Assembly: GCF_004010195.1 (NCBI RefSeq)
Contig: NC_057737.1
Location: 1,582,779 to 1,646,778 of the forward strand
DNA from: Chiloscyllium plagiosum
Lineage: Eukaryota
DNA: 64,000 nucleotides
Direction of reading: 5' to 3'
A model generated the notes under the pieces. The model was not told the DNA's origin and searched no databases. It worked only from the letters and a program-made list of their open reading frames with translations. The translations under genes were made by a program, and so were the position numbers. How positions within the stretch are numbered: the first letter of the stretch is position 1; every line of letters starts with the position of its first letter. Of the stretch, positions 2,921 to 61,189 are shown in pieces.

Positions 2921-3637
2921 AATGATGCCGACCTCCCGCCAGTGATTAAACAAAATAAAATAATAAAAATCATTTTGAAAATGCATTACCCCGCCTTGAC
3001 CAAATTCTACCTGCCCTTTTTACATTTTTCATCCGTAAGGGAATCAAGGGTTATAGGGAAAAGGCAGGAAAGTAGAGTTGAGGATTAGCAGGTCAGCCAG
3101 ATCTCACTGAATGGTGAAACAAATCCAAGGGGCGGAATGGCCTACTTCTCATATATCTGATAGCCTTCTCAGCAGGTGTGGCAGCATGTGTCAAGAGAGA
3201 GAAATGATTAACATTTTGAGAATGTTGTGACTTCTTCGCAATGGAAATGGGCTAGTAAATTATGCTTTTTTGCTGTTGACAGAGGGGAGGAAGAGTGAGT
3301 GGAGCAAATGATGAATATGCCTTGAGCAAAAACCAAAGGAAGTGTTACTGGTGGTAAAGGAGAAATAGATGTAAAACAGGTATAAATGGGGTGGGTGTGA
3401 AAAAGAGAAAATGCAACCCACTATGCTTTTAGCAAAGCCAACAAGATATAGCCGTGTGGTTTTGGTGGAGGGGGCAAGTGCAGTATTGTAATCAAGATGG
3501 AGAAAGAGGTCTTACTCTGAGCTTGTTCTGAAGAAGAGTCAGATTGGACTCACAACGTTAACTCCTTCTCTCTCCACAGATGGTGTCAGACCTGCTGAGT
3601 TTCTCCACCATTCGGTGTTTGTTTCAGAGGCAACAGC

Positions 3638-4582
3638 TAGGAGAAAGTGAGGACTGCAGATGCTGGAGATCAGAGCTGAAAAATCTGTTGCTGGAAAAGC
3701 ACAGCAGGTCAGGCAGCATCCAAGGAGCAGGAGAATCGACATTTCAGGCATAAGCCCTTCTTCGGGAATGAGGAGGGTGTGCCAAGCAAGCTAAGATAAA
3801 AGGTAGGGAGGAGGGACTTGGGGGAGGGGCGTTGGGAATGCGATAGGTGGAAGGAGGTTAAGGTGAGGGTGATAGGCCGGAGAAGGGGTGGGGGCAGAGA
3901 GGTTGGGAAGAAGATTGCAGATCAAGAAGGTGGTGCTGAGTTCGAGGGTTGGGACTGAGATAAGGTGAGGTGAGGGGAAAATGAGAAAGCTGGAGAAATC
4001 TGCATTCATCCCTTGTGGTTGGAGGGTTCCTAGGCGGAAGATGAGGTGCTCTTCCTCCAGGCATCGTGTTGCCATGGTCTGGCGATGGAGGAGGCCAAGG
4101 ACCTGCATGTCCTTGGCGGAGTGGGCAGGGGAGTTAAAGTGTTCAGCCATGGGGCAGTTGGGTTGGTTTGGTTGGTGTGGGTGTCCCAGAGGTGTTCTCT
4201 GAAACATTCCGCAAGTAGGGGAGACAGGCTGCCCTCCAATGCTAGGGATGAATGCCGATTTCTCCAGCTTTCTCATTTTTCCCTCACCCCTCCTTATCTC
4301 AGTCCCAACCCTCGGACTCAGCACCGCGTTCTTGATCTGCAATCTTCTTCCCGACCTCTCCGCCCCCACCCCCTCTCTGGCCTATCACCCTCACCTTAAC
4401 CTCCTTCCACCTATCGCATTCCCAACGCCCCTCCCCCAAGTCCCTCCTCCCTACCTTTTATCTTAGCCTGCTTGGCACACCCTCCTCATTCCTGAAGAAG
4501 GGCTTATGTCCGAAACGTCGATTCTCCTGCTCCTTGGATGCTGCCTGACCTGCTGCGCTTTTCCAGCAACACATTTTTCAGC
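3638..4582. mobile_element. Fold-back Penelope-like insertion (two PLE 3' ends joined head-to-head)
   Basis: Arms ~3675-4010 and ~4245-4582 are near-perfect reverse complements. The minus strand encodes a PLE GIY-YIG C-terminus (PMAEHFNSPAHS...EEEHLIFRLGTLQPQGMN). The flanking duplication is TCAGAGGCAACAGC 3624-3637 / TCAGATGCAACAGC 4583-4596. Confidence 0.85.
4492..4519 (+). ncRNA. Minimal type I hammerhead ribozyme core (PLE pLTR)
   Basis: CTGAAGA-A-GGGC TTAT GTCC-GAAA-CGTC: CUGANGA box, helix II hairpin, GAAA, palindromic ACGU helix III and a GUC cleavage triplet. Confidence 0.75.
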
Positions 4583-6079
4583 TCAGATGCAACAGCATTT
4601 TGCTTTTATTATTCTGAAGTTGGGCTCATTGTTGAGTCTATAAAGGCTGTAAAGTGCCAAAGTGGAAACTGAGCTGGTGTTCCCCCAACTTACATTGAGG
4701 TTTATTGGAACACTTAGCAGGCCCGGAGTGGAAATGTTAGCATGAGAGCAAAATGGTTTACTGATAACTCACTGGAAGGTCAGATCAGCCTTGCATAAAA
4801 CAGTCAGCCAGCCCACATTTGGTTTTGCCAATGTAAAAGAAATCGCTTTGTGAGCAGTGAATACATAGAAGTAAAATGCTGCTTCACCTGGAAGGCGTGT
4901 TGGAGCCTTGGACAGTGAGGGCCAAGGAGGTGAAAGGGCAAGTGCAATTGAATGAGAAGTGTTATAGTGAAGGGGAGGAAGTGTTAGGAGTAATGGATGA
5001 ACCAGAGTGTCATGGTGGAAATGGTGCCTGTGGAAGAACTGAACAGGTCTGTCTGGCAGCATTTGTGGAAAGAGAAACAGAGCCAGTATTTCAAGTCCAA
5101 CTATTCTTTTTTATCACTTTAAGCAAGATGGGGCTCATATACCTCACCTTTTGCCCTGTGAGTTTAGACCTTAGTAAGTTCAGGAGAAAACTAACTACGA
5201 TTGATGGTTGTGGGACCTTGCTATGTGTAAATGACCCCACATTTCCATCATATAATAGTCGATATGTTTCAATCCAAAAAATATCTCCAGATGGCCGAAG
5301 GTTGTGAATAGCTAAAGAAATGCAAGTCCTGTTTTTTGACTTTCATGAACCTGTGTCCTAAAGTTAGGCTGCACATAATTGGAATACGAACATAAGTTGA
5401 AAGGTTTTCAGTGGTTCTACAGGAAAGGCCTTCAGTTTTATAAGTCATCTCTCTTCGAAGATTCGAGAAAAGGAATTTTTTTTTCCACCGATGTAAAAAC
5501 TTGGTCTCTTTCCAAACTCAATTTTGGCCAGGATTCCAAAAACAAGTAATCAGACAGCTGCAGCAATTAGCTGAGGACTGCATAACTCAGAATGGGTCCC
5601 ACTGGACACACAATCTCTCCTCAATGAAGGATACTCCAATATGCTACACTGCATTACAGTCTCTCTGCACCACAGTCTTCGCTTGTTCATGGTGTAGTGA
5701 CCAGGTGAAGTTAACCAAGCTGATTTATGAACCCACTCTGCACAGGATCCAGTTTAATGCCCCTAATGGTATGGGGCTGTCTTCAGCTTTTCAAATTTTA
5801 AAATCTGATGTTTGAAATAGTATACAAGGTGCACTCAATGTTCAAGACTACATTGCCCAATTTGCCCCAAGTAAATTAGGCTCTTAAAATTGTCCTTGCC
5901 AACATTTCAGAAATTGACAGTGTTGTAAATGGTTAATACTTGTTGACAAATCTAGATGACTACCTGTTTTAAAATAGATGCTTTTTAAGTGGCAGCCATT
6001 GTATCAGAATCAACAAACAACTAACTGTTTCTGAATAGGCACATTTCCATTATGTCTGCCTCTATATGTGATTATAAGC

Positions 6080-6310: not shown

Positions 6311-6493
6311 TGTAATCTGAAGTACATGGATCACCTTTGATTTTATCCACTTCTAATGTGCTTGCTTGTATACTGATGAAGGGTGCGGCTGGATCGAGGT
6401 ACCATTTTGAGGCAGGATCCCAGAAGCTTTTCCATGTCCATGCTTGTAGCATATCTCATCTGGGAGAAGTTAAACCTGACACTGAGTCAAAGT

Positions 6494-6577
6494 GATGAAG
6501 AGCTTATGCCCAAAACGTCGACTCTCTTGCTCCTTGGGTGCTGCCTGACCTGCTGTTCTTTCCACAGTTTTCGACAA
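6494..6577 (+). mobile_element. Solo mini PLE pLTR with degenerate hammerhead
   Basis: Begins (T)GATGAAGAGCTTATGCCCAAAACGTC. The exact 11-bp TSD TGAGTCAAAGT lies at 6483-6493 and 6578-6588. Confidence 0.75.
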
Positions 6578-33465: not shown

Positions 33466-33559
33466 TTCCACATCAACCTTGTCAAGACCATTCAGCATCA
33501 TATACACTTCCATCAACTCACCTCGCACACTTTTGAATTCCAATTAAGACAAGTCCAGC

Positions 33560-35192: not shown

Positions 35193-35634
35193 GACGAGGA
35201 AGTACAAGTCCTGGAGGGGTGGGGGCATGAGCAAAGGAACTGTCCTCAGGCAGGTCACTCTACACTTTATACATAAATGATTGTGAAGACCATTGGGGCT
35301 TTGATTGCATGTTCCCCAAGAGACTGAGGGGATGGTTCTCTCCTCTGTAATACTGAGCCACACAAGATAGGGAGGCCCAGTAAAACCCTGTGCTGAGGTA
35401 CCTGGGATATTGCTTCAGTCATCCTGGGCTTGGGCAGCAGGGAATCCATCAATTCCTAATACTCGAACTAGCAATCCTGTGTTTCTGACTGTATCTGTGT
35501 GTCCCTGTGGTTTATGTTTCATCAACATTACACACATTAAAACACGTCTTTCTGTGCCATTTGGGTTACCAGTTGGTTGAACTCCCTTTATCTGTTTGAT
35601 AGGATGCTGAGGATGAGACTGAATGTACTGCTAA

Positions 35635-35796
<162 letters not shown>

Positions 35797-37341: not shown

Positions 37342-37543
37342 GAGAAAGTGAGGTCTGTAGATGTTGGAGATCAGAGCTGAAAATGTGTTGCTGGTAAAGC
37401 GCAGCAGGTCGGGCAGCATCCAAGGAACAGGAGAATCGACGTTTCGGGCATTCCTGATGAAGGGCTTATGCCTGAAACGTCGATTCTCCTGTTCCTTGGA
37501 TGCTGCCTGACCTGCTGTGCTTTACCAGCAACACATTTTCAGC
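37342..37543. mobile_element. 202-bp fold-back mini-PLE with intact hammerhead core, in a BLTP2 intron
   Basis: Arms 37375-37450/37469-37544 are reverse complements. The core CTGATGAAGGGCTTATGCCTGAAACGTC is at 37454-37481. The exact 15-bp TSD TCCATTATTTTAATG lies at 37327-37341 and 37544-37558. Confidence 0.9.
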
Positions 37544-37879
37544 TCCATTATTTTAATGTTTTATAACTTCCTTGTATTTATGGGCCTGGTTTTCCATTCT
37601 TCCCCAACTGGATTGAATTATTGTCTTCTGGTCTGATTTCAAAATCCTTAATTAGACCACATTCTTTAAACAGAACAAAAACCTTAACCCAATTAATCTT
37701 CCCCTGCAGGTAGCTGTAATCTTTTTGCTCTGACAAAATTCTTCTCCAGCATTTTCATAGCCTTTCTTTAATAAAGGAACTTAAACTATGTAGTTATCCA
37801 AGTATGATCTGCCTAGCTGCACTACGTTTAACAATACTTTTGTCTTTGCAATTTTGTATCTTTTATAATTAAATCACAG

Positions 37880-38165
37880 CAGGCAGCATGGTAGCTCAGT
37901 GGTTAGCACTGCTGCCTCTCAGCACCAGGGACCTGGGTTCGATTCCAGTCTCAGGTGACTGTGTGGAGTTTGCACATTCTCCCCGTGTCTGCGTGGGTTT
38001 CCTCCGGGTGCTCCGGTTTCCTCCCACAGTCCAAAGATGTGCAGGTTTGCGTGGATTGGCCAATGGGAAATGCAGGGTCTGGGTAAGGTAGGGTAGGGTA
38101 GGCTGTCTGAGGATTGGTCTGGATTAGATGGGCCAAATGGCCTACTTCCGCACTAAGGTTCTGTG
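37880..38165 (+). mobile_element. HE1/V-SINE-type SINE
   Basis: A box, B box GGTTCGATTCC and V-core. Confidence 0.85.
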
Positions 38166-38469
38166 ATGCTTTGTTAGGTTTTTAAATTGTTTTACGAACC
38201 AATGATGTTATTTTTGCCATATGATCCCTTTGCTCATCTTCACCATTCAACTTTTAACTTCCTGAAGTGTTGGTAATGTTCTGTGCTTCTCACTCAACAC
38301 CTGACAGTGGCAAAGGTGGGAGGATGTGTGTTAAAGTCAGTCTGGACAGTGGGTCGGAAACATTTGTGGGAGAGATACTGAACAAGGGAAATCTCAGTGA
38401 GGGTGCCAGAGGGTTGGCTGTTCAGAGGGGGCGGGGGCAGGGGGGACAGTCAGGGATCAGGGAGAATTT

Positions 38470-39594
<1,125 letters not shown>

Positions 39595-39645
39595 TAGGAG
39601 TTTTTGTGTGGGTTGTGTGTTTCAATAAACACTCTCATTTTCTGA

Positions 39646-39792
<147 letters not shown>

Positions 39793-40359
39793 TGATCAGA
39801 ATGATCGTCTTTGTCTCAGTTTCTTTAACAATCGCCATGGTGGTCTCCTCCTGCCTTCGCTCCCTCAACAATCTCCACTGTCAGATTCCTGGTACTCCTT
39901 TGCTGTTTTCTGAGTCGCCCCCAATTCTTGGGCTTACCACGTTTTCTGACATTCTTATAATCCACTTCCTTTGATCTAATAGATTCTTTAACTCTTTTTA
40001 TTATCAATGTTATCTGGGCACCAAGCTCTGGGATTACTAAGTTAACCCTCCTTTACTTCTCTCTCCAAGCTTTTGGTCATGACCTAATGTCTGGATATAT
40101 GGCTCAACTTCAAACTTTACTTAATAATTGCTCCTGTGAGGCATCCTGGAATGATATTCCTGATTCCTGGATTTTCCCAGTCAGCCAGCTCCCTGATCCA
40201 TGTTGCTGATAGATGGTTTCGGCTGAGGGAAGTCCCTCCTTTGATCCCATACCTCCAACACTGTGACTGCAACTGAAGGAAATGGGGCTGAGCATCAACA
40301 TTCCCAACTCCTGTCAGAATTACCACCATCGCTGGGTTTACTGCACCTAAAGGACCATA

Positions 40360-40750
40360 AGAAACAGGAACAGGAAGAGGCCGTTCAGCCCCTCGAGCTT
40401 GCTCTGCTATTCAACAGGACTATGGGTGATCCGAGATTCCTCACAGCCACTCGCCTGAATTTTCGCTGGTACCCTTGTTTCCCCGACTGATCACGAATCT
40501 CTCTGTCTCTCTCGGCCTTAAATATCCACACGGACTATGCCCTCACAGCCTCTGTGGCAGGGAGTTCCAAAGACACTCAACCCTCTGACAGAAAAAATTC
40601 CTCATCTCAGTCAGAAATTGGAGCCCCTTTATTCTGAGACTAAACCCTCTGGTCCTAGTCTCTCCCATAAGGAGTGACATTTTCTCAGCATTAACCCTGT
40701 CAAGCCCCTTAAGCATCCTGAATGTTATAATGAGATCACCTCTGATTCTT
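40360..40750 (-). mobile_element. CR1-type LINE 3' end
   Basis: RIRGDLIITFRMLKGLDRV...FFCQRVECLWNSLPQ. Confidence 0.8.
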
Positions 40751-40962
40751 TGAAAATTCTCAGTTTTACACCCAGAAATGGCTTGTGTGAATCTGGTGGT
40801 GTGGAGTTGAAGATATTTGCACTCTCCTCTCACACATCTGGGTATTCCACATTGAAGGGCATTGTGTGTCAGGGTCCACTATTAGTCTTGGCTGGAGAGG
40901 GAGCCAATCACTACATAATGATCTGTAATAGGAACCTTTATTAATTTAGCCTCCAAGTATAA

Positions 40963-42470
<1,508 letters not shown>

Positions 42471-42546
42471 AAATATCCAGCGCGAGAGGCCTTTCTGTAA
42501 TTCTGCCTCTACGTGGCCTTTAGATGTGATGGTGGAAAGGTCCTGA

Positions 42547-42819
<273 letters not shown>

Positions 42820-44181
42820 TAGCCACTTCAACCGTATTCCATTGTCATGGAAAGTCACTGAATAGTAAGTCTGGTTTTATTCAGTCTCCCCTCATGTTTA
42901 CTTGTCCACGAGACCCTGTCAGAATAGGCAGATCAACTCACAATGAGCTCTCATCCCAGTGATCCTGCACCCTGCTGCTCTTGTGTGAGCTATACTGATG
43001 TGGACTGCATTCAGTATTGAGTTCGCACTGAATTTGTGACAATGAGGAATAGGTTTAAGTCCCATTAGTTCATCTAGTCTGTGCGTAACAGCTGGGAGAT
43101 CTTATACAGCATGACCGAGACTGACCTTGTAATCTCCTTGGAGATGAGGACAGTGAAGGTAAAAATTCTGCTGCAGCAACTGAAACTAGCCCAAATCTCT
43201 GAGTTACACTGCAGCGTTCCCACCTTTTGTACAAAATTGTTTTAATTTTGGTCAGTTCCCACTTAAAGGGATTCAGAGAGTGGCTTCTTCTGCACTTGCC
43301 CCCAGCCTGTTCCAGCGAGGCCACATTCTCTGGAAGAGCAGCCTCCTGGTGACTGCGGTATCAATTAGCAGAGCAGGCTCAAGGGGCTGCTCCTGATTAT
43401 GTTCTCTGTCTAACCCAGTCCTGCCATTAAGTTAATTGTGACCTGTCGTCCCTCTTGAACCTGTCCAGTTGCATCTTACATCATTATTCTGTATTAATAG
43501 TTGCCATTGTCCCAGAGGACCATGGAGCTGCTCTCTCATTAGAGAGAGGTGACTGCTCAAAGTTGAACCTGAGGGTCACCAAACCACAGGCAAGGTCAAG
43601 CAAAGCAGGAATTGAACCCACACTATTGGCATAATCATGCATTGCATACCAGCCGTCCAGCCTACTGTGCTAACCAGCTCAGTCTTGGTACTTTACCGGA
43701 GCAATTAAACCTCGTTCTAAATTACCTCATCCAGAGCTAAGATCTTAGATTTCCTACAGTGTGGAAACAGGCCATTTGGCCCATCGAGTCCAAACAGCAT
43801 CCTACCCAGACCCACCAGGAGAGAATATGGAACTTCCTACCACAGGGAACATTTGAGGCAAATAATATACCTATAAGAAGGAAGGTTGATAAACAATTGA
43901 GGGAAAAAGGAATGATGGCATGAAGTGAACTGGGATCAGGAGGATAAAATCACAAGAGAATAAATGTTGGCATCATTCTGAAGAGAAGTCTTATTTAAAC
44001 CAGAATCTTGACACTTCAACAGATACAGCCAGAACTGCTGAGCATTCACTGTCTTTATTGCAGATTTCAAACAGCTGCAGTATTTTGCTTTTGTTACGCC
44101 ATCACAGCTCATTCAGGGTGAGCAGCCAGGTTGTGTGCCTCAAATAATTAACAACTCTCTGTACCTGTCTAGGTAGTGTAG

Positions 44182-44466
<285 letters not shown>

Positions 44467-46824: not shown

Positions 46825-46830
46825 TTTATT
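46825..46830 (-). terminator. Candidate EMC6 polyadenylation signal
   Basis: AATAAA on the minus strand, about 1.2 kb past the EMC6 stop, at the end of unique sequence. Confidence 0.5.
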
Positions 46831-48060: not shown

Positions 48061-48393
48061 TCAATAAACGTGCACCATGCCATACAGGAAGGTCCAGAAC
48101 AGGATGTAGGTGAAGAGGCCACCGACAAGGCCTCCAGTGAAGAGAGGGCGGCGAGACTTGAAATACTTGCTCCAGCGACGTCCAGCTTTTACAATGAGCA
48201 GCACGGAGAGGAGGAAAGAGGCAACAAAGTAGAAGATGAAACCTGTCAGTGCCGTCAACCCCAGGATCCCAGCAGTGGCACCCGACAGTGCAGACACAGA
48301 CGTGCGGCAATAGTCCAGGATGGCAGCGTTTCCTCGCACTGCTAATTCGCTGATAAACTGTGGACCTTCTCGTTTAAAACCCACAGCAGCCAT
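48061..48393 (-). CDS. EMC6: ER membrane protein complex subunit 6
   Basis: 110-aa intronless [35 protein letters not shown]...[14 protein letters not shown] splice acceptor (TTTTCCTCCCAG) lies 19 nt upstream of the ATG. Confidence 0.98.
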
Positions 48394-48719
48394 GACAAGC
48401 TCAGTAATTCTACTGGGAGGAAAAGCAAATTAATGTTGAGTGAATGAAGGGTGGGGGTGTAATAATAGGAAACAAGAACAACTTGTGGAGATATAGCATC
48501 CTGAATATAGTGAAACATTCTCAAGGTGCTTTCCAGGAGAATTAATCAAACAAACAGTTTGACAGCTACCATAGGAGATGTCAGGTAGGACAGTAGACCA
48601 AAACATTGTTGGAAAGATGGAGGGTTGTAAGGAGCATCTTAGAAATAGGTCGATCAAATTGGATGGCAAGGATATGTTTGGCTCAGTTTCAAACAGAGGC
48701 TGGGAAGATTAGAAATTCC

Positions 48720-49465
48720 AAAGCTTCACAATCCTACAAGAGAAGATATTTCTCCTCATCTCAGTCCCAAATGGTCAGCCACTTATCCTGAGATTGTGCC
48801 ATGTTTTAGATTTCCCCAGCCAGGGGTATCTGCTTCTGAACATCCACAAAGTCAAGCACAACCAGAATCTCATGTTTCAGCTTGATTTCTTCTAAACTCC
48901 TTGTGGGGCCCATTCTACCAAATCTCTCCGTGTAGAATAATTCCCTTTTCCCAGGAGGAAATCAAGTGAACCTTGTTTGCATCAGGTAAACATATTCTCT
49001 CTTAGGTACAGAGGCAAACTGTGTACATTACTCCAGGAACAATCTCACCAAAGGTCCACACAATTGCAGCAAGATAGTGTTACTTATAGAGTCATAGAGC
49101 TGTCTAGCACGTAAAGAAACCCTTCAGTCCAACTCGACAATGCCGACCAGATATTCTAAAATAATCTAATCCCATTTGCTAGCATTTGGCCCATATCCCT
49201 CTAAACCTTTCCTATTCATTTACCCATCCAGATGTATTTTAAATGTTATTGTACCTGCCTTCACCACGTCCTCTGGCAACTCATTCCATACAGACACCAT
49301 CCTCAGCTTGAAAGAGTTGCCCTTTTGAAATGTTTCCCTTCTCAGCTTAAACCTATGCCCTCTATTTTGGACTTCCTACCCTGGGGAAACAATGTTGGCT
49401 ATATACGCTACCCATGACCTTCATGATTTTATAAACATCTAGAAGATCACCCCTCAGCCTCCAAA
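48720..49465 (-). mobile_element. CR1-type LINE remnants
   Basis: A CR1 3' UTR and C-terminus at 49085-49465, nested in an older fragment. Confidence 0.7.
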
Positions 49466-49596
49466 TTTCTTGTATTCCAATGTCATTGCAATTAAAAAAT
49501 CATGTCGTTTTCCTGCCGAAATGCTTGCTCTACTTGCATGTTAATTCTCCACCTTTCTCCTTCAATGAAATCAATTCATCATCATTTACCAGTTTT

Positions 49597-49905
49597 TAGA
49601 TTAGATTCCTTACAGTATGGAAACAGGCCCTCAGGCCCAACAAGTCCACACCGACTCCTCCGAACCCACGCAGATCCATTTCACAACCCATATTTACCCC
49701 TGACTAACGTACCTAACACTATGGGCAATTTAGCATGGCCAATTCTCCTCACCCGCACAACTTTGGACCATGGGAGGAAATCGGAGCACCCGGAGGAAAC
49801 TCATGCAGACACTGGGAGAACGTGCAAACTCCACACAGAGGCAGGAATCGAACCCGGACCCCTGGCGGATGAGGCACCAGTGCTAACCACTGAACCACCA
49901 TGCCA
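49597..49905 (-). mobile_element. HE1/V-SINE-type SINE
   Basis: Reverse-strand A box, B box (GGTTCGATTCC), V-core and (CTAAT) tail. Confidence 0.85.
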
Positions 49906-49957
49906 CACCAGTTTTGTTTAAAAGAAAACCCAGTGTGGAAACAGACCATTTAGCCCA

Positions 49958-50692
49958 ATGCGAGGTGCTGCATTTTGGGAACGCAAATCTTAGCAGGACT
50001 TATACACTGAATGGTAAGGTCCTAGGGAGTGTTGCTGAACAAAGAGACCTTGGAGTGCAGGTTCATAGCTCCTTGAAAGTGGAGTCGCAGGTAGATAGGA
50101 TAGTGAAGAAGGCGTTTGGTATGCTTTCCTTTATTGGTCAGAGTATTGAGTATAGGAGTTGGGAGGTCATGTTGCGGCTGTACAGGACACTGGTTAGGCC
50201 ACTATTGGAATATTGCGTGCGATTCTGATCTCCTTCCTATCGGAAAGATGTTGTGAAACTTGAAAGGGTTCAGAAAAAGATTTACAAGGATGTTGCCAGG
50301 GTTGGAGGATCTGAGCTACAGGGAGAGGCTGACAGGCTGGGGCTGTTTTCCCTGGAGTGTCGGAGGCTGAGGGGCGACCTTGTAGAGGTTTACAGAATTA
50401 TGAGGGGCATGGATAGGATAAATAGACAAAGTTTTTTCCCTGGGGTTGGGGAGTCCAGAACTAGAGGGCATAGGTTTAAGGTGAGAGGGGAAAGATATAA
50501 AAGAGACCTAAAGGGCAACTTTTTCATGCAGAGGGTGGGTACGTGTATGGAATGAGCTGCCAGAGGATGTGGAGGAGGCTGGGATATGGAATGGCTGCTG
50601 GCAGGTGGGACTAGATTGGGTTGGGATATCTGGTTGGTATGGACAGGTTGGACCAAAGAGTTTGTTTCTATGTTGTACATCTCTAGGACTAT
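49958..50692 (+). mobile_element. 5'-truncated CR1 LINE inserted in a SINE (SINE parts ~49930-49957 and 50693-50920, minus)
   Basis: CEVLHFG...RDLGVQV...LEYCVRF and the 3' UTR. Confidence 0.9.
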
Positions 50693-51054
50693 AAGTCCAC
50701 ACCAACCCACCGAACAGTATCCCACCCAGACCCATCACTCTCAACGTGCCTAACCCTCAACACTATGGGCAATTTAGCATGGTCAATCCACCTAACTTGG
50801 ACTGTTGGAGGAAACCAGAGCACCCAGTGGAAATCCACACAGACACAGGGAGAATGTATAAACTGCACACAGTCACCCAAGGATGGAACTGAACCTGGAT
50901 CCCTGGTGTTGTAAGCCACCATTTCACCCCGAAATAAATAACATTTCGATTGTCTTTCTAACAAAGTGAATAACCTTACATTAACGTCAGTTACATACAA
51001 AGTAAAGTTCCCTCTACTCTATTAAACTTACTGCCTCCTCCAGCCTGTCTCCAT

Positions 51055-51240
51055 CAAACATCCAAAGATGTGCAGGTTAGGCCCTGAGTGTTCAGGAATG
51101 TGTAGGTTAAGTGCATTAGTCAGAGGTAAATGTAGAGTTATAGGGCCGGGTAATGGGTCTGGGTGGGTTAGTCTTTGGAGGGTCGGTATGAACTTGTTGG
51201 GCCGAATGGCCTGTTTCCACATTGTAGGGATTCTATGATC
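51055..51240 (+). mobile_element. HE1/V-SINE-type SINE 3' half
   Basis: TCCAAAGATGTGCAGGTTAG...CTTGTTGGGCCGAATGGCCTGTTTCCAC. Confidence 0.75.
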
Positions 51241-51382
51241 CCAGGACAAGTACAGCATGGAGTTAGACTGAGCAAAGTTCTCTCTCTCTCTCTGTACGCT
51301 GTCTCCATCACTCCCAGCAGATACAATACCTGTTTTATACATAGTACAGAGCTGTGTTCAGTGACATTTATACTGTGTAGGT

Positions 51383-51610
51383 GGGGGGAGGGGCTCCTTG
51401 TGGGACAATGCGATGCTCCCCCATGGGGGCTGCCCTCTGCTGGTCACCGCGGGGACAGCGGGGGGAGGGGCTCCTTGTGGGACAATGCGATGCTCGCCCA
51501 TGGGGGCTGCCCTCTGCTGGTCACCGCGGGGACAGCGGGGGGAGGGGCTCCTTGTGGGACAATGCGATGCTCGCCCTTGGGGGAGCCCTCTGCTGGTCAC
51601 CGCGGGGACG
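51383..51610. repeat. 77-bp minisatellite x3 carrying CTCF-consensus motifs
   Basis: Period 77 (CTCC at 51394, 51471, 51548). Each unit contains GCCCTCTGCTGGTCA. Confidence 0.9.
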
Positions 51611-52520
51611 GCACACCTGCCCGGGGTCCTTCCGCCACCCAGCTGTCCAACCCGGTGCCAAACCGGGAGTGGCGGCGCGCCTCAAACGCGCATCCTTCTC
51701 TTCCGGCGCCGCGACTATTCAGCCTAGTGCGTGTTACCGAGCCTCCGTGTCGGCGACAGGCAGCTAATCACTCACCGGCGCGGTACGCAGCTCTCTCACA
51801 CGGTAAGCAGCTTCCTGTCAACCTGCCGCCATTACACAGGAAGCCCCGCCCCCCGACCGTCACCTTTCACCTCTCACCCGCCCTTCCAGAAATAAAACCG
51901 ACATTTCTCAGGATTAAAGTAAATTCTGACATGGGTCAATCCAAACTTATTTTGGCTCTTCGATAATTTTAATTTAAACAAGCGAGATGTTGTCCGCCAG
52001 GGCCCGTCCCCAGGTTCATAGCCCCGCCTCCCAATGTAAGCCCCGCCTCCCAATGTAGGCCCCGCCCAGTCGATGACGACACAACAGACGCGACCTCGCC
52101 CATTTAATAACCACACCCCCTCACGAAGTGACGTTCCGTTTATGACTACCCCCCGTAGATAGCCCCGCCCATTTACGTGTCCGGCCAATCCACTGTGACC
52201 CCGCTTCCTTCACGTCCCCATCCCACTCCATCCAGCTCCGCTTTCCACCGTCCCGACCCATCACGTGGACGTCCCGACCCATCACGTGGACGTCCCTCTG
52301 CGTAACCCCGCCCCATCGCTCCACCCCCGTGCCCTCCACTATACAGCCACGCCCACTCCCCACGTCAGCCCGCCCCCCCTTTCACCAGCCTCGCCCTCTA
52401 TATTAGCCCCACCCCTACGCCCGGCGCGCACCTTCACCATCCCCACACGAGCCCCGCCCCTATGCCCGCCCCCACACGAGCCCCGCCCCCAAACAGTAGC
52501 CCCGCCTCTCCCACGCTGCT
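51600..52520 (-). promoter_or_regulatory. CpG-island promoter of EMC6
   Basis: Many GC boxes (GCCCCGCC), CCAAT (~52184), CRE-like GTGACGT, and tandem TCACGTG E-boxes in a 21-bp duplication (~52250-52295). Confidence 0.75.
51776..51830 (-). other. EMC6: Probable non-coding first exon of EMC6
   Basis: Minus-strand donor CCG|GTGAGT at 51775-51770 within a CpG island. YY1-like CCGCCATT, ETS CAGGAAG and GC boxes lie just upstream. It pairs with the acceptor at 48413. The TSS is approximate. Confidence 0.7.
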
Positions 52521-52539
52521 GTTCCCCTGACCCAGGGCT

Positions 52540-53250
52540 GGATGACACAAACAAGGATTGCTGAAAAATCTCAGCATCTGCGGAGAGAAATCAGAGCTAA
52601 CGTTTCGGGTCCGGTGACCCTTCCTCAGAACTGATGGTAGCTCAGAAAATGATGTTTTTTTACTTGGAGGCTGGGGTGTGGTGTACACTTTAAACAAGAG
52701 GTTTAAATAAAGCCCAGAGAGAGCAGCTGGACAAAGATATGGATAACGGTTAGTCTAAGTGATTGAATGGCTGCTAATGGGTGGTGTGTAGTAGTAGGAG
52801 AAAGTGAGGTCTGCAGAGGCTGGAGATCAGAGCTGAAAATGTGTTGCTGGAAAAGCGCAGCAGGTCAGGCAGCATCCAAGGAACAGGAGAAGCGACGTTT
52901 CTGACATGAGCCCTTCTTCAGGTGTGTAGTAGTAGCCCATGTGGTGATAGGGACTGGTGTGCTGGGGATGGAGTAAGGACATGAGACAAGCCCTAAAATT
53001 GTTCATCTCGAAATTGAATACAGAAGGCTGCAGAGTTCCCTAATGGAAAATGACGTCGATCTTCCGTGGTAGACAAGCAAGCAATACTGGAGATGTTGAC
53101 TTCTCCACCTCCTGATGCTGCCTGGCTTGCTGTGTTCTTCCAGCCTTTTGCTTGTCTACTTTGGATTCCAGCATTTTGCAGTTTTTTGTCTCTAACCGAG
53201 CTTCACTGGAGCACTACAGCACGGCTGAGACAGAGATGTATAACTCTATC
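52540..53250 (-). mobile_element. Penelope-like remnant (third family) with nested mini-pLTRs
   Basis: The minus-strand hammerhead CTGAGGA-A-GGGTC ACCG GACCC-GAAACGTT is at 52599-52628. Nested inserts lie at 52798-52920 and ~53066-53195. Confidence 0.7.
52798..52920 (-). mobile_element. Solo mini PLE pLTR
   Basis: The exact 15-bp TSD GGTGTGTAGTAGTAG lies at 52783-52797 and 52921-52935. The 5' end is at (CC)TGAAGAAGGGC. Confidence 0.85.
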
Positions 53251-53281
53251 AATAGACATAAATCTGGAAGAGCACGGCAGT

Positions 53282-54318
53282 CATAGAGTCATAGAGATGT
53301 ACAGCATGGAAACAGACCCTTCTGTCCAACCCGTCCATGCCTCCCACCTGCCAGCACCCGACCCATATCCGTTCAAACCCTTCCTATTCATAGACCCATC
53401 CAAATGCCTTTTAAATGTTGCAATTGTACCAGCCTCCACCACATCCTCTAGCAGCTCATTCCATACACATACCACCCTCTGCCTGAAAAAGTTGCCCCTT
53501 AAGTCTCTTTTATATCTTTCCCCTCTCACCCTAAACCTATGCCCTCTAGTTCTGGATTCCCCAACCCCAGGGAAAAGACTGCCTATTTATCCTATCCATG
53601 CCCCTCATAATTTTGTAAACCTGTATAAGGTCACCCCTCAGCCTCCGACGCTCCAGGGAAAACAGCCCCAGCCTGTTCAGCCTCTCCCTGTAGCTCAAAT
53701 CCTCCAACCCTGGCAACATCCTTGTAAATCTTTTCTGAACCCTTTCAAGTTTCACAACATCTTTCCGATAGGAATGAGACCAGAATTGCATGCAATATTC
53801 CAACAGTGGCCTAACCAATGTCCTGTACAGGTGCAACATGACCTCCCAACTCCTGTACTCAATACACTGACCAATAAAGGAAAGCATACCAAATGCCTTC
53901 TTCACTATCCTATCTACCTGCGACTCCACTTTCAAGGAGCTATGATCCTGCACTCCAAGGTCTCTTTGTTCAGCAACACTCCCTAGGACCTTACCATTAA
54001 GTGTAGAAGTCCTGCTAAGATTTGCGTTCCCAAAATGCAGCACCTCGCATTTATCTGAATTAAACTCCATCTGCCACTTCTCAGCCCATTGGCCCATCTG
54101 GTCCAGATCCTGTTGTAATCTGAGGTAACCCTCTTCGCTGTCCACTACACCTCCAATTTTGCTGTCATCTGCAAACTTACTAACGGTACCTCTTATGCTC
54201 GCATCCAAACCATTAATGTAAATGACAAAAAGTAATGGACCCAGCAGTGATTGTTGTGGCACTCCACTGGTCACAGGCCTCCAGTCTGAAAAACAACCCT
54301 CCACCACCACCCTCTGTC
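53282..54318 (-). mobile_element. 5'-truncated CR1 LINE
   Basis: 254-aa ORF 53546-54310 (GVPQQSLLGPLLF, KFADDSK, LEYCMQFW) and a (CTCTATGA)n tail. Confidence 0.93.
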
Positions 54319-54441
54319 CAAGCAGTAGGGAATGTCAATGTTGACTTTCCTGCTCCTCGAATGCTGTGCTCTTCCAGTTTCATATCCATGGACTCCTAGT
54401 TCCAGCATCTACAGTAATCCTTAAAGTCTCCGAGTCTATGA

Positions 54442-54730
54442 CTGCAGTCAGGTCCCGCCCTTCCCTGCGCTCAGCCCCGCCCTGCAGTCAGGCCCCGCCC
54501 TTCCCTGCGCTCAGCCCCGCCCCGGCCGTAGCCACGCCCCTTCCCTGTGCTCAGACACGCCCCGCCCTGCAGTCAGGCCCCGCCCTTCCCTGCGCTCAGA
54601 CACGCCCCGCCCTGCAGTCAGGCCCCGCCCTTCCCTGCGCTCAGCCCCGCCCTGCAGTCAGGTCCCGCCCTTCCCTGCGCTCAGCCCCGCCCTGCAGTCA
54701 GGCCCCGCCCCTCTCCGGCCCCGCCCCCTC
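54442..54730 (+). promoter_or_regulatory. GC-box minisatellite forming the SHPK proximal promoter
   Basis: ~40-47 bp unit CTGCAGTCAGGCCCCGCCCTTCCCTGCGCTCAGCCCCGCC, about 6-7 copies with two Sp/KLF sites per unit, immediately 5' of a splice donor. Confidence 0.75.
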
Positions 54731-54744
54731 CGGATAACTGCCCC

Positions 54745-54781
54745 CTTCCTGTCAGAGTCTGTTGGTTTAGAAGCGCGTCAG
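54745..54781 (+). other. SHPK: Probable non-coding first exon of SHPK
   Basis: Donor CAG|GTAATG at 54782, with an alternative GCG|GTAAGA at ~54973. The ATG exon at 57165 has an acceptor, so a 5' exon is required. Confidence 0.55.
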
Positions 54782-55119
54782 GTAATGGCTTTCCCGACCG
54801 TTTTCCCACATTCAAATTCCTGTCACTTTGGTTCTTTCCCACGAGTCAATCGCCCTCTGTTGATCTTCCAGCCGCTTGTTTCTCAATCAGTCATCCACAC
54901 ATTTTTCAAAGTGAATTCCGGCCTGCGGCCGCGGCGGGTTTTGCTGTTGGCGGGGTGGCCTGTCCATCAGCGGTAAGACCCGCCCACCCCCGAATGGTCC
55001 AACCAGAAGCTCAGGGCCATCATGACCTCTCTCCATGGAAACCCTCACCATGGCAACACCTCATCATGGTGACCCCTCTCCATGGCAATTTTCTACTAAT
55101 CACCATCCATGGAAATCTT

Positions 55120-55365
55120 AGAATCCCTACAGTCCAGAAGCAGGCCACTCAGCCCATTGAATCTGCACTGACCCTCCAAAGACCATTCCACCCAAACCCA
55201 GCCACTATCCGTTGACTATCCCGGCCAATCCACTGAACCTGCACATCGTTGGGCTGTGGGAGGAAACTGCAACACTGGATGAAACCCATGCCAACACAGA
55301 GAGAATGTGCTGCCACGCAGTCAACTGATGATGAAATCAAACTTGGGTCCCTGGCACTGTGAGGT
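55120..55365 (-). mobile_element. Diverged HE1/V-SINE-type SINE
   Basis: Degenerate V-core and tail on the reverse strand. Confidence 0.65.
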
Positions 55366-55935
55366 GCCCTGGTGAGACCACAGCTGGAGTACTGTGTGCA
55401 GTTGTGGTCTCCAAATTTGAGGAAAGACATTCTGGCTATTGAGGGAGTGCTGCGTAGGTTCACGAGGTCAATTCCTGGAATGGCGGGATTACCTTACACT
55501 GAAAGACTGGAACGACTGGGCTTGTATACCCTTGAGTTTAGAAGACTGAGGGGATCTGATTGAGACTTATAAGATTATGAAAGGATTGGACACTCTGGAG
55601 GCAGGAAACGTGTTTCCGCTGATGGGTGAGTGCCGAACCAGAGGACACAGCTTAAAAATACGGGGTAGACCATTTAGGACAGAGATGAGGAGAAACGTCT
55701 TCACCCAGAGAGTGGTGACTGTGTGGAATGCTCTGCCCCAGAGGGCAGTGGAGGCCCAGACTCTGGATTCATTTAAGAAAGAGTTGGATAGAGCTCTCAA
55801 GGATAGTGGAATCAAGGATTATGGAGATAAAGCAGGAACAGGATACTGATTAAGGATGATCAGCCATGATCATATTGAATGGTGGTGCAGGCTCGAAGGG
55901 CAGAATGGCCTACTCCTGCACCTATTATCTATTGT
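55366..55935 (+). mobile_element. CR1-type LINE 3' end
   Basis: VRPQLEYCVQLWSP...RTRGHSLKIRG...FTQRVVTVWNALPQ. Confidence 0.9.
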
Positions 55936-56519
55936 AGCAGTACTAATTACTGACCTGCCATCCTACCCCCTTAACAGTACATTTGACAGTCTGCTAATGT
56001 ACTGTGCCTTAAATTGGTATTCCTGCAAACTAACCTGATGAATGAGCATCATCATTTTTTAATCAAAATACTCATGAAAAGCTTTCATTAGATCCCCTTT
56101 GTTCTTTTCTTGGTTAGTTTAGTTCTGAACAAGCATTCACTGGACTGGAAACATTAACTCTGTTTTTCTCTCCAGCAGGTACTGCCACACCTGCTGAATT
56201 TCCCAGCAATTTCTGTTTTTGTTTATTTTAAGCCTGTGGCCTCTGGTTACTGACCCCCATGCAAAGTGAGAATTTCCTATCATTTGTACCATTTAAATTC
56301 GTCATGGCTCAAACCTATTAATCCTCTCAACTCAAACAAAAAAACTGGTATTGCATTCATTTAAGTATATCACTACACTACTTTAAAGGCATTCTCTTTA
56401 AAGCATTCTGCCCAAAATTGAGCACAATACTCCAGTTTGGAGATCAACAAATAATTAACAAAGATTGTATATTTGTAAACATGTATTTTAGGGGATTCTG
56501 GTATGCTTATTTCTATGAA

Positions 56520-56683
56520 GTTAAAAATCACACAACACCAGGTTATAGTCCAACAGGTTTATTTGAAAATACAAGCTTTTGGAATGTTCTTTTTTGTCAG
56601 GAACCTGACAAAGAAGCAGCACTCTGAAAGCTTGTATTTTCAAACAAACCTGTTGGACTATAACCTGGTGTGTGATTTTCAAC
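56520..56683. mobile_element. 164-bp palindromic mini-PLE (same family as 18625-20258)
   Basis: Arms GTTAAAAATCACACAACACCAGGTTATAGTCCAACAGG... and its reverse complement, with the centre GTCAGG-AA-CCTGAC at the degenerate hammerhead 5' ends. The degenerate TSD is TTATTTCTATGAA / TTGTTTCCGTGAA. Confidence 0.8.
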
Positions 56684-57170
56684 GTTGTTTCCGTGAAATA
56701 TGTATCTAGTTAAGGTACACATCTTTGCCTTCAAATTTTACAATGCTAAACCACTTCACAATTATAGAAAATACACCTGTAATTTCAATGCGGACATCTC
56801 ACTCTCCTTTTTAAATGCCTTCATGATTTCTCTGTAGCCTCCTTGATTCCTACCACCTTCTGTGATCAGAGTGACACTGTAATTCACATCTCTTGTATTC
56901 CTGATCTTAATCCAGCATTGGTAATGCTGCCTGGCTCCATGGCTCTGAAATTTCCTGCTCAACCTTGTCTCCTTTCTCCTTTAATTTTCACATTTAAAAC
57001 CTCCCTCTTTGACCAAGCTCGGTTTTTTTTTAACCAGTATCTCCATAGCGGCTTAGTGCCAAAATTTGTTTGAATATCCTTCTGTGAAGCAACTAGGGAG
57101 ATTTTATGACATTAAAGGCACTATATAATTAAACAATGTAAGTTTTTTTTGTGTGTTTTCACAGAGGAAA

Positions 57171-57323
57171 ATGAGTTTGCAAGCTCCTTCCCGGTATGTT
57201 TTGGGTCTGGATATTGGTACAAGCTCGGTAAAGGCAGTGTTGTTGGAGGCTGAGAGCCGGGCAGTGGTTGACAGCCAGACAAAGAAAACTAAAGCAGACA
57301 CCAGCAGCCTGGATGGAGAGAAG
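57171..57323 (+). CDS. SHPK: Sedoheptulokinase, first coding exon
   Basis: MSLQAPSRYVLGLDIGTSSVKAVLL... carries the FGGY kinase N-terminal ATP-binding motif. Acceptor before 57165; donor AAG|GTAAAG. Confidence 0.92.
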
Positions 57324-57379
57324 GTAAAGGGAATAAAGTATCAGAAAATCATAGGTGGCTTTGGTTTCAGAGTCGGTCA

Positions 57380-58205
57380 TATAGCATGGAAACAGGCCCT
57401 TCAGCCCAAGCCATCCATGCTGATCAGGCTTCCTAAACTAATCTAGTCCCATTTACCTGCATTTACCCCTCCAAACCTTTTAAGAAGATATTTAGCATGC
57501 TTGCCTTCATTGCTCAGAGTATTGAGTATAGGAGTTGGGACATCATATTGAGGTGAGGCCACTTTTGGAGTACTGTGTACAGTTCTTGTCGCTCAACTAC
57601 AGGATAGATATTATTAAATTGGAGAGGGTTCAGAAAAGATTTACAAGGATATCATCCAGACTGGATGGAGTGGAAAAGTCAAGAGGGATATGGGCCAAAC
57701 ATAGGAAAGTGGGACTGGTTTATTTTTGGAAACTTGGTTGGCATGGACAAGTTGGACCGAAGGGTCTGTTTCCATGCTGTATGACTCTATCCATATACCT
57801 GTCCGAATGTCTTTTAAATGTTGTAGTTGTACCCACTCCTACCACTTCCTCTGGCAGCTTGTTCTATGTACGCACAAAACCTCTGTGTGAAATGTTACTC
57901 CTCAGGTCCCCTTTAAATCTTTCCCATATCACCTTAAACATATGCCCTCTGGTTTTGAACTCCTCTACCTGAGGAGAAGACTTTATCTATTCACCTTGTC
58001 TATGATCCTCATGATTTTACAATCTCTATAAGGTCACCCTTCAACCTCCTATGCTCCAGGGAAAACAAAATTCCAGCCTCTCCTTATAACTCAAACCTTT
58101 CAGTCTCCATAACATCCTTGTAAATCTTCCTTGCACCGTTTCCATTTTAATAGTATTCTTCCTCGAGCCAGGTGACCAGAATTGTACACAATACTCTAAA
58201 TGTGT
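57380..58205. mobile_element. Interleaved CR1 fragments in both orientations
   Basis: A plus-strand piece (~57480-57790, LEYCVQF...KLERVQKRFTR) is inserted in a minus-strand CR1 3' end. Confidence 0.8.
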
Positions 58206-58221
58206 CCTTTCCTTTGTACTG

Positions 58222-59890
58222 TAGACAGGCAGGAGGCTGGAAGAACACAGCAAGCCAAGCAGCTTCAGGAGGTGGAGAAGTCGACGTTTTGGGTGTAACC
58301 CTTCTTCAGGACTGGGGGTGGGTGTAGGGAAAGCTGCAGATAAAGGGGGTGGCGGGACCAGGTTAGTGAAGTGGGGATAGGTGAATACAGGTAGAGGGTA
58401 CGACCTGGTTGGTCAGTGAGAGGTATGAATCTGGTTGATGGCGGGGAGGAGTGGAAGGGAGGGACAGGAGCTGGGAAGGGGGGATTATTTGAAATTGGAG
58501 AACTCAATGTTAAGTCCTTCAGGCTGTAGATTATGCTGGCAGTGTGATAAAGTTCGTTGTGGTAATGGAGGAGGCCAAGGAGGTCATGTTGGAAAGGGAA
58601 TGGGAAGGGGAATTAAAATGGGCGGTGACTGGGAGATCCGGTTGGCCCCTGTGGGCCCGGCTGAGATGCTCGGAGAACCGTTCCCTAAGTTTATGTTCGG
58701 TCTCCCCAGTATAGAGAAGACCACAACGGGAGCACCTGATGCAGTAAAGTAGGGTGGAGGAGAGGCAGGTGAACCTCTGTCTCACCTGGAAGGACTGTTT
58801 GGGGTCCTGGATGGAAGTGAGGGGGGTGGTGTACCGGCAGGATTTGCATCTTTTCCAGTTGCAGGGGAAGGTACCTGGGGGTTCGGGGGTGGGGGTGAGG
58901 GTCAGTGGGGAGAGTAGCACAAACCAAGGACTGTCGAAAGGAACAGTCCTTGCGGGAGGCAGAGAGGGGTGGGGAGGGGAAGATGTTATTGGTGGGGTCT
59001 GGTTGGAGTTGGCAGAATGGTTAAGAATCCAGCACATCATCCTTAAACACTTCCGTCAACTCCAACCAGACCCCACCACCAAGAACATCTTCCCCTCCCC
59101 ACCCCTCTCTGCATCCCGCAAGGACCGTCCCCTTTGACCGTCCTTGGTTTGTGCTACTCTCCCCACTGACCCCCACCCCCACCCCCGAACCCCCAGGTAC
59201 CTTCCCCTGCAACTGGAAAAGATGCAAAACCTGCCGGTACACCACCCCCTCATCTCCATCCACGGCCCAACACAGGTCTTCCAGGTGAGGCAGAGGTTCA
59301 CCTGCCTCTCCTCCACCCTACTTTACTGCATCAGGTGCTCCCGATGTGGTCTTCTCTATACTGGGGAGACCGAACATAAACTTAGGGAACGGTTCTCCGA
59401 GCATCTCAGCCGGGCCCACAGGGGCCAACCGGACCTCCCAGTCACCGCCCATTTTAATTCCCCTTTCCACTCCCTTTCCCACATGACCATCCTTGGCCTC
59501 TTCCATTACCACAATGTACCAAACCACAAATTGGAGGAACAACACCTCACCTTCCAGCTGGGCAGCCTGCAGCCCAGAGATGTCCAATTTCAAAGAACCT
59601 CCCTTCCCACTGACCGACTCCCTTCCCAGCCCCTCCCCCCTCCCTCCTGCCACCAACCCGATTCATTCCTCCCATTGTCCAACCAGGTCGTACCCTCTAT
59701 TAGTCTTCACCTGTCCCCACTTCACCATCCTGCCCATGCCATCCCCTTTAACTGCAGCTCCCCCTACACCCACCCCCTGTCTTGGAGAAAGGTTACACCC
59801 AATACGCGATGCTGCCTGGCTTGCTTTGTTCCTCTAGCCTCCTGCCTGTCTACTTTGGATTCTAGCATCTGCGGGGTTTTTTGTCTCTTA
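58222..59890. mobile_element. Large fold-back Penelope-like insertion in an SHPK intron
   Basis: Arms ~58222-59020 (-) and ~59030-59890 (+) both encode the GIY-YIG region (CNWKRCK.C; LLYCIRCSRCGLLYTGETEHKLRERFSEH). Flanks are CCTTTGTACTG / CCTTTGCACTG. A hammerhead-like core is at 58283-58309 (-). Confidence 0.9.
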
Positions 59891-60505
59891 CCTTTGCACT
59901 GGCTGACTCATTAAATTGCATGTTCAAGGCCATTTGTCCTAATAAAGAAAACTCTTGCCTTCCTAGAATGATTTCACAACATCCCAAAGTGGCTTTCAGC
60001 CAAGGACAATGAAATACGTTTGAAGTGTTGTGATTGTTGTCTGCAAGAAACACAGCTGCCTACTTGCACACAGCAATGTCTCTCACAACACAAGGCAATC
60101 ATGACTAGTTCATCTGTTTTTGTGGTGGTGACAGTGTGATAACTATTGTCCAGGACATCAGGAGAATGCCCCTGTTGTTCTTTGAAGTCATTCCAGGGCA
60201 TCTTTTGCTTGGAAATGGAAGCCTGGTTTAACATTTGCCACAAATAATGGCATCTCAGCAGTGAAGCCCTCCTTCAGCTCTGCACCTAGATTTTTGTGCC
60301 TGAATCTTTTGCAAGAACCCTAGCTCTACAGGTCAATTTATTTAACTTAAGGTAATGTGCCAAAGAAAGAGGGGAAGTGATGGAAGATTTTACTCAGCGA
60401 TTATGATGTAGAATGTTTGGAAGGTGACAGTAGCAAATTCATTAGTAACTTTCTGAAGAGAATTAGATAAATAGGAACAGGTGTAGGCCAATAAGCCCCT
60501 TGAGT

Positions 60506-61189
60506 TGACAGTGTGGTGATGGAAAAGCACAACAGGTCAGATGGCATCTGAGGAGCAGGAGAATCAAAGTTTCAGGCATAAGCCCTTCATCAGGATTGAG
60601 GCTTATGGGCTGGGGAGCTGAGAGATAACTGGGAAGGGGGTGGGGTTGGGGGTAAGGTAGCTGCGAAGGAGATAGGTAGGTGAAGGCGAGGGAGAAGGTG
60701 ATAGGTCAGAGAGGAAGGTGGAGCGGATAGATGGGAAAGTTGATGGACAGACCAGGAGGGCAGTGCCAAGTTCAAGGCTTGGGGCTGGGACAATGTGGGG
60801 TGAGGGAAGGGAAATGAGGAAACTGTTGTAATCCACATTTATCCCATGTGGTTGCAGTTCCCATATTATCCCAGTCCCAAGCCTTGAACTCAGCACTGCC
60901 CTCCTAACCTGTCCATCACCTTTCCCATCTAGGCCCTCCACCCCTCTACCGACCTATCACCTTCTCCCTCACCTTCATCTACCTATCGTTTTCTCAGCTA
61001 CCTTACCCCCAACCCCACTCCCCCTCACATTTATTTCTCAGCCCCCTGGCCCACAAGCCTCATTCCTGATGAAGGGCTTATGCCTGAAACGTTGTTTCTC
61101 CTGATCCTTGGTTGCTGCCTGACCTGCTGCGCTTTTCCAGCACCACACTCTCGACTCTGATCTCCAGCACCTGCAGTTCTCACTTTCTC
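60506..61189. mobile_element. Fold-back Penelope-like insertion in an SHPK intron
   Basis: Arms ~60510-60795 and ~60870-61150 are reverse complements. Hammerhead cores are at 60566-60593 (-) and 61066-61093 (+). The 18-bp TSD (2 mismatches) is CCAATAAGCCCCTTGAGT / CCAATCAGCCCTTTGAGT. Confidence 0.85.

Follow-up and report, generated by a model that had tools for sequence, protein, structure and literature searches.

The window analysed here is a stretch of 64,000 nucleotides from the shark Chiloscyllium plagiosum (NC_057737.1, positions 1,582,779 to 1,646,778). It carries the last coding exons of BLTP2/KIAA0100, the EMC6 gene and an FGGY-kinase gene, which we take from its protein sequence to be SHPK. 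Among and inside these genes, 18 minimal hammerhead ribozyme cores and three partial arms were found in 61,853 known bases. We read these motifs as the minimal hammerheads (min-HHRs) of Penelope-like elements (PLEs), lying in truncated, often inverted end-pieces and likely inert in place, and we put the probability of this reading at roughly 0.85. It is based on the comparison of a descriptor with shuffled sequence, covariation at the family level, remnants of GIY-YIG endonuclease and reverse transcriptase (RT), target duplications and one-sided tails. Min-HHRs have been described in the pseudo-long terminal repeats (pLTRs) of metazoan PLEs (Cervera & de la Peña 2014, PMC4209133), including fish Xena, Poseidon and Neptune elements.

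Ribozyme cores and their stems

A type I hammerhead descriptor was run on the window with eight block-wise dinucleotide shuffles as the control, and the core total was built from this descriptor, a relaxed descriptor and BLAST with five family seeds. Perfect cores were matched seven times in the window and not once in any of the eight shuffles. With at most one mismatch there were 13 matches (one not in any repeat family), and with at most two mismatches 15 (three not at family cores), compared to 0–2 per shuffle at either setting. A preliminary description of the window had listed 15 motif sites as type I hammerheads; all are present at or within 2 bases, with those given as 6494, 56606 and 52896 being in register at 6492, 56605 and 52894. 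Three more cores were added at 3528–3559(+), 56573–56600(−) and 59782–59808(+).

The cores fall into five sequence families, A to E, with 10, four, one, two and one members, respectively. In family A, the core at 4492–4519(+) retains its boxes and palindrome with one G·U pair in helix II and is predicted to be buried in an inverted-repeat duplex, and that at 37454–37481(+), in sense in a BLTP2 intron, has intact boxes and a G·U at 10.1–11.1, with a partial antisense core beside it at 37438–37451(−). The others of this family are 3738–3765(−), with U4 changed and the palindrome lost; 6492–6519(+), damaged, with C3 missing; 12374–12401(−), with the palindrome lost; 18397–18424(+), damaged; 42056–42083(−), in a BLTP2 intron; 52894–52921(−), with the 10.1–11.1 pair broken; and 60566–60593(−) and 61066–61093(+), both in the SHPK intron and the latter in sense. 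Family B contains an intact core with an AGCU palindrome at 18715–18743(−), a core with U4 changed at 20177–20205(+), and two decayed cores at 56573–56600(−) and 56605–56633(+). The family C core at 52599–52628(−) is intact with a GUU triplet. Family D has a core at 58283–58309(−) and a decayed one at 59782–59808(+) with six core mismatches, and the family E core at 3528–3559(+) has a damaged GAAA box.

The CUGANGA and GAAA..UH boxes carried no mismatch in nine of the 18 cores, one mismatch in five, and two or more in four. The extra A after the CUGANGA box reported earlier was seen, unpaired between positions 9 and 10.1, in all 18 cores. The loopless helix III palindrome (ACGU or AGCU), also reported earlier, was kept in 13 cores, the ACGU form being common to four families, while the five cores that had lost it all belong to family A and lost it at a CpG. 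Only four of the 18 cores (4492, 18715, 37454 and 52599) passed every test, 4492 and 37454 on condition that a G·U pair is allowed in helix II; the other 14 show decay or damage.

Helix pairs were counted in a core-anchored alignment, as a MAFFT alignment had put the family B rows out of register, and covariation between families was tested with one representative for each of six (sub)families and 720 permutations. Helix II was paired in 24/24 cells, which two of the permutations reached, and helix I in 16/18 cells, which was reached by 12. Helix II is closed by G10.1–C11.1, the family A representative having a G·U at this pair. The covariation between families is real, and it amounts to about five family-level events, not 15. 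Among the 10 copies of family A, nine helix II pairs were changed: six on one side to G·U (four of these at a CpG), two to a broken pair and one with compensation. Eight of the nine changes are therefore one-sided decay, so that the covarying stems proposed earlier stand between families but not within family A. Helix I in this family mostly reads ATTC/GATT with a U·U at the third pair, and the AATC/GATT form previously given for it occurs in one of the 10 copies. The helix measures 3–4 bp in families B, C, D and E but only 2 bp plus the U·U in most family A copies, compared to 4–5 bp in the Schistosoma families (PMC4209133); helix II measures 4–6 bp in the window. In family A, non-CpG changes were rarer in the conserved boxes (1/99) than downstream (34/430, p=0.012), which fits selection on the parent subfamilies.

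Carrier elements and insertion units

Coding remnants of PLEs lie upstream of the cores in four families, bearing out the earlier assignment to pLTR pieces of several Penelope-like families. An RT fragment of Penelope type at 13360–13779(−) lies upstream of the core at 12374–12401, on the same strand and across an 855-N gap. It shares 96% identity with a protein of Chiloscyllium punctatum (P0001), followed by matches to whale shark, zebra shark and ray proteins. Pfam returned RVT_1 (E=2.4e-6) and GIY-YIG (E=3e-4 to 6e-4), both under the Pfam cut-offs and as fragments only, and one relative of 806 amino acids bears both domains and matches both window pieces. Endonuclease remnants of the GIY-YIG type were found by tblastn or Pfam in family A (3944–4168(−), C-terminal, within the unit 3638–4582), family B (19373–19586(−), within the unit ~18625–20260) and family D (58573–59017(−) and 59021–59605(+), in the unit 58222–59890), and by eye in translation in family C (~52990–53068(−), C-terminal, upstream of the core at 52599). 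A CX4CXXC linker occurs in the family D open reading frame (ORF) 58531–59055 and in P0028, a 59–62% relative of the RT fragment; the B, C and E pieces lack that region. A CX2-5CxxC linker before GIY-YIG is common to Neptune/Nematis PLEs (Craig et al. 2021, PMC8557442) and family D, and the placement of the window elements in this clade is based on the linker motif, not on a tree. Downstream of the cores, families A, C, D and E have in common a GATGCTG motif with a small GCTG/CAGC hairpin after it (for example at 4535–4570), which may be where an ORF starts or where a protein binds for internal priming. This Penelope RT is also present, at 66–69% identity, in a number of gene models from rays and skates that bear the names of host genes (chitinase domain protein 1, nicotinamide riboside kinase 1 and DIPK1C isoforms), reflecting mis-annotation or exonisation.

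Most insertion units are inverted with their tails outward, and the full tail is present on one arm only in six of the seven two-armed units with readable ends. Target duplications scoring at least 10 were found for 6/14 units and 1/60 random pairs, a comparison favourable to the units in that their ends were chosen by eye. The duplications measure 11–16 bp, and the junctions show microhomology of 1–3 bases. The family A unit at 3638–4582 is an inverted insertion with outward tails, a 14-bp duplication with one mismatch (3624–3637, 4583–4596) and a full tail on the left arm only. Its left duplication overlaps the family E tail, indicating that family A was inserted into family E, the arms of which are 308 bp apart with a purine-rich spacer (3168–3637). 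Family A solo stubs lie at 6492–6577(+), starting inside the CUGANGA box (11–16 bp duplication), at 18398–18490(+), starting at the core (12-bp duplication), and at 52798–52920(−), with a full tail and a 15-bp duplication, inserted into the 3ʹ region of family C. Two stubs of this family lie in BLTP2 introns, a palindromic one at 37342–37543 with a 15-bp duplication, and one at 42001–42133 with a weaker duplication, in which the core is joined in inverted orientation to a tail-only piece. Family B forms an inverted unit at ~18625–20260, with the core 18715(−) in the left arm and 20177(+) in the right, and a palindromic stub at 56518–56688 with its two decayed cores head to head. Family D forms a short inverted stub at 53069–53195, with only the 3ʹ edge of the core, and an inverted insertion in the SHPK intron at 58222–59890 (11-bp duplication, one mismatch). 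The same intron contains a family A inverted insertion at 60506–61195 with a 12-bp duplication (one mismatch) and a full tail on the right arm only.

The window contains no tandem core array, and no core falls in any of its 17 Tandem Repeats Finder rows. Same-strand cores are 293 to 23,340 bases apart, and the 293-bp pair belongs to different families with incompatible helix I strands. A cis heterodimer of 52894 and 52599 was accordingly rejected, as cross-pairing fails between the helix I strands of the two and the 10.1–11.1 pair is missing from 52894.

Inversion next to a 5ʹ-truncated copy, a 30–40 bp tail at one end, target duplications and palindromic junctions are likewise features of Neptune/Nematis-type PLEs (PMC8557442; Arkhipova et al. 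2013, PMC3846280). Unlike the elements in these two accounts, as far as their accessible text goes, the window holds fragments only, many of its units measure 90–220 bp with no coding sequence, and the duplications are 11–16 bp. The cores share with the published min-HHR the type I form, the loopless helix III, the palindrome at 15.2–16.2, the extra base between 9 and 10.1 and the G10.1–C11.1 pair, and the setting is the same: several families per genome, mostly as single copies of truncated elements, and opposite-strand pairs 100–700 bp apart (PMC4209133). No shark and no clustered 5ʹ edge of copies are mentioned in the accessible text of that paper.

The genome is densely seeded with these cores, as had been suggested from the window: 140,148 and 161,141 contig records from two public runs match one 631-base family A arm, records not being copy counts. 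The density of 18 cores per 62 kb is higher than that given by about 4,000 descriptor hits per genome in the coelacanth and about 9,000 in Xenopus (PMC4209133). Extrapolated from this one window, one core per 3.4 kb would give about 10^6 motifs, some 2×10^5 of them intact, in a genome of ~3 Gb, the whale shark genome being near that size; the whale shark genome paper names Penelope once. A metagenome scan with a 32-base family A pattern gave no match.

Host genes and intronic copies

The last coding exons of BLTP2 were located at ~35674–35790, 39349–39500, 39650–39783, 41017–41124, 42556–42699 and 44266–44463 (35674–44463, +), EMC6 at 48061–48429(−), and an intron between two exons of the FGGY-kinase gene at 57324–62309(+). 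Introns could be assigned for cores to the right of 34.7 kb. The cores in sense are 37454 in BLTP2 and 61066 and the decayed 59782 in SHPK, and those in antisense are 42056 in BLTP2 and 58283 and 60566 in SHPK. The preliminary description was right that some copies lie in sense inside host introns, but all three are arms of inverted insertions. When the plus strand of five inverted units was folded by minimum free energy (the unit of 59782 was not among them), the core lay in a long duplex in four, with 61066 fully paired, and half in the duplex in one, which was 37454. None of the sense-intronic cores has a tandem partner or a compatible same-strand partner nearby in the window. The host introns are probably not cut and the copies would be inert passengers, as lone copies have no partner and inverted copies are predicted to fold back on themselves.

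BLTP2 is represented in the window by no more than its final ~265 codons (35193–44463), and no upstream exon was found to the left of the N gap at 34693–35192, which points to faulty joining of the scaffold or to a gap of far greater size. In 1–34.7 kb, there was no BLTP2 exon, P2X/PDZ motifs were likewise not found, and no host gene family was matched by the ORFs of that part within the 122 scanned (of 143 listed), apart from one ALKBH8_N match. EMC6 (−) and the FGGY-kinase gene (+) are arranged head to head (48061–57323) across GC-rich DNA at ~51.3–55.1 kb, which contains 77-bp and 40-bp tandem repeats and nested insertions of families A, C and D. A CpG-island-like region at 1900–2600 has a splice donor on each strand (− at 2155, + at 2195) and resembles a promoter that works in both directions. 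Remnants of long interspersed elements (endonuclease-RT) and tRNA-derived short interspersed element (SINE)-like repeats are abundant at 8950–55900, and self-BLAST masks 38% of the window.

The 5ʹ edge of the copies and its origin

The 5ʹ ends were placed by eye on 19 arms, of which seven have their start in the interval from 5 bases ahead of the core to 2 bases within it, two start further inside, and 10 continue into the 3ʹ untranslated region (UTR). In the contigs of the two public runs matched to the family A arm, depth dropped steeply upstream of the core, and the loose-end consensus (870 and 1110 contigs) tracked the element to 4 bases before C3 and then passed into mixed AT-rich letters. 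Immediately upstream of the core, pyrimidines are common to the three A subfamilies of the window, and these are absent from the loose-end consensus. In RNA run X21, depth fell from 1,875 and 835 across the core to 180 in the next bin. In this run, 4,414 of 12,955,460 records match the family A arm, in both orientations and with no pile of starts or ends, the library being a fragmented poly(A) single-cell library that is unreliable for cleavage or caps. In the same run, depth of one orientation over the family A end-piece was ~1.3–2.6 times that of the other, with the ratio reversed over the endonuclease part, which may be a priming bias of the library.

The edge lies 32 bases upstream of the cut site, indicating that the stub copies came from uncleaved RNA, as in the green anole Poseidon element PAc (Frangieh et al. 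2024, PMC11167929). We give about even odds to the view that the template RNA begins 1–5 bases ahead of the core, so that many copies stop at that point and the stubs are run-off copies of uncleaved RNA. A more speculative version, which we consider rather unlikely, is that the 5ʹ strand of helix I doubles as an initiator and the RNA starts 4 bases before the core. Internal priming 60–100 bases on would then yield strong-stop-like copies of 90–130 bp, and 10^5–10^6 such ribozyme-headed stubs might form the densest ribozyme-motif population of vertebrates, their head-to-tail pairs serving as raw material for retrozymes. The 5ʹ strand of helix I resembles the initiator consensus in families A (TCATTC), C (TCAGTT) and D (CCAGTC). 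The Penelope element of Drosophila virilis has a TATA-less internal promoter with an initiator and a downstream promoter element, and its start lies well upstream of helix I (PMC2377424). A spliced 5ʹ exon before helix I, as in D. virilis, was rejected for family A because the loose letters past the edge are not constant, and the ACGT palindrome was dropped as a downstream promoter element, since it does not lie equally far from the edge in all families (+27, +28 and +30).

According to the literature, the 4-base palindrome would bring two cores together in the parent element, with cleavage following GUC, CUA or GUU; this cleavage would be weak and perhaps aided by the element's protein. Dimer cleavage through the palindrome is weak (PMC4209133), and cleavage is protein-assisted and dispensable for insertion in vitro (PMC11167929). 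The element's protein would cut both DNA strands, and copying would be primed inside the RNA at two positions, which lie ~60 and 100 bases beyond the point of cleavage. Priming on two strands and at two sites would give tail-out inverted units with the tail on one arm, while run-off at the RNA start would give the short stubs. The genomic copies would be left as inert passengers, lone ones lacking a partner and inverted ones folding back. The one-sided tails fit two-site internal priming, for the two RT start sites and two-strand extension described for PAc would explain them (PMC11167929). As in PAc, the core lies ~60–100 bases upstream of two alternative 3ʹ ends and the copies run through the cut site, as expected with an uncleaved RNA template. 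PAc, however, belongs to another clade and host, and run-off stubs at a core edge have no place in the accessible part of its account.

Several points weigh against this interpretation. Family E has no Penelope coding remnant beside its core, and the link of the RT fragment at 13360 to the core at 12374 spans an N gap. The activity of the parent ribozyme and the inertness of the copies are both predicted from sequence and folds, and the low change rate in the boxes could also mean selection after insertion. At the edge, long subfamily copies with another 3ʹ UTR are also clipped there, which inflates the depth drop, and nothing like an initiator is present at the edge of family B. At the proposed start, the loose end of the RNA reads (157 reads, agreement 0.42) is unlike a template-switch oligo, so that no capped end is seen there in that library.

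That the motifs are chance matches in a repeat-rich window is refuted by the shuffle control and the between-family covariation. Rfam found no hammerhead family among its 22 matches at E≤1 in the window, these being hairpins of miRNA and UTR type on inverted repeats only and all under the gathering score, and copies of one repeat are not independent. None of the eight shuffles produced a perfect core, however, and five unlike families share the boxes, the spacing, the extra A and the paired stems at the same element position. It is also very improbable that sense-intronic copies cut host pre-mRNA, as cis or trans dimers, and affect the expression of BLTP2 or SHPK. The core at 37454(+) does retain both boxes and the ACGU palindrome inside its intron, and the very high copy number, with ACGU shared by four families, means that trans partners exist. 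Against this, the sense copies are all arms of inverted units, with 61066 fully and 37454 half duplexed and 59782 carrying its six mismatches, helix I of family A has just 2 bp and a U·U, and RNA reads ran in both orientations with no pile of ends at the cut site, though this is a weak test. Published dimers cleave poorly; of nine dimer elements from Xenopus, eight showed no cleavage (Li, Clavereau & Pollet 2026, bioRxiv 10.64898/2026.07.22.740005).

Two further explanations concern the stubs. The clustered edge could be a hotspot of processing or template switching, with the endonuclease cutting an intermediate or the RT leaving at the folded core edge, which we regard as possible but doubtful. 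The family A edge reads ATT, the motif most often cut by the anole Poseidon enzyme (PMC11167929), the junction microhomology of 1–3 bases would suit it, and no cap signature was seen in the RNA. Family B, however, ends at the same place relative to the core with no ATT, pairing in helix I is weak, its probability never exceeding 0.22 in six monomer folds, and a structural stop would generally be expected on the 3ʹ side of the core. We think it unlikely that the stubs of 90–130 bp are an independent non-autonomous family, SINE-like or retrozyme-like, self-transcribed and amplified via tandem dimers or circles. In the genome-wide contigs they have sharp ends on both sides, and 5 and 18 contigs, counts that are incomplete, contain head-to-tail joints in which the core edge (3760) is linked to the end of the tail (3639); tandem stubs of ~130 bp exist elsewhere in the genome and could form retrozyme-like cis dimers. 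Non-LTR retrozymes (Li et al. 2026) are, like the stubs, non-coding hammerhead-bearing pLTR derivatives with dispersed monomers and are reported from one chondrichthyan genome, where their families may overlap those of the window. What defines them, however, is a tandem array in which every unit bears a ribozyme, and the window has no such array. Moreover, the stubs are close to long copies (52826–52922 is 94% and 37449–37545 is 93% like 4492), and four families contain them, with 3ʹ ends and centres of inversion that vary, as would follow if each stub were made anew at insertion.

We found no paper on shark PLE hammerheads or on a clustered 5ʹ edge in a search that left most subscription literature outside. 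The window is a new host example. This class of motif, its unusual features and how common it is in fish and amphibians were already published, so that where ribozymes are concerned the gain is confined to one more host lineage. The insertion record could matter more, since many sharp-ended stubs would be a genome-scale readout of where PLE reverse transcription starts and stops, and copies extending across the cut site are consistent with templates that had not been cleaved. Should the 5ʹ edge indeed be the transcription start, the excess of solo hammerheads over full elements would be accounted for.

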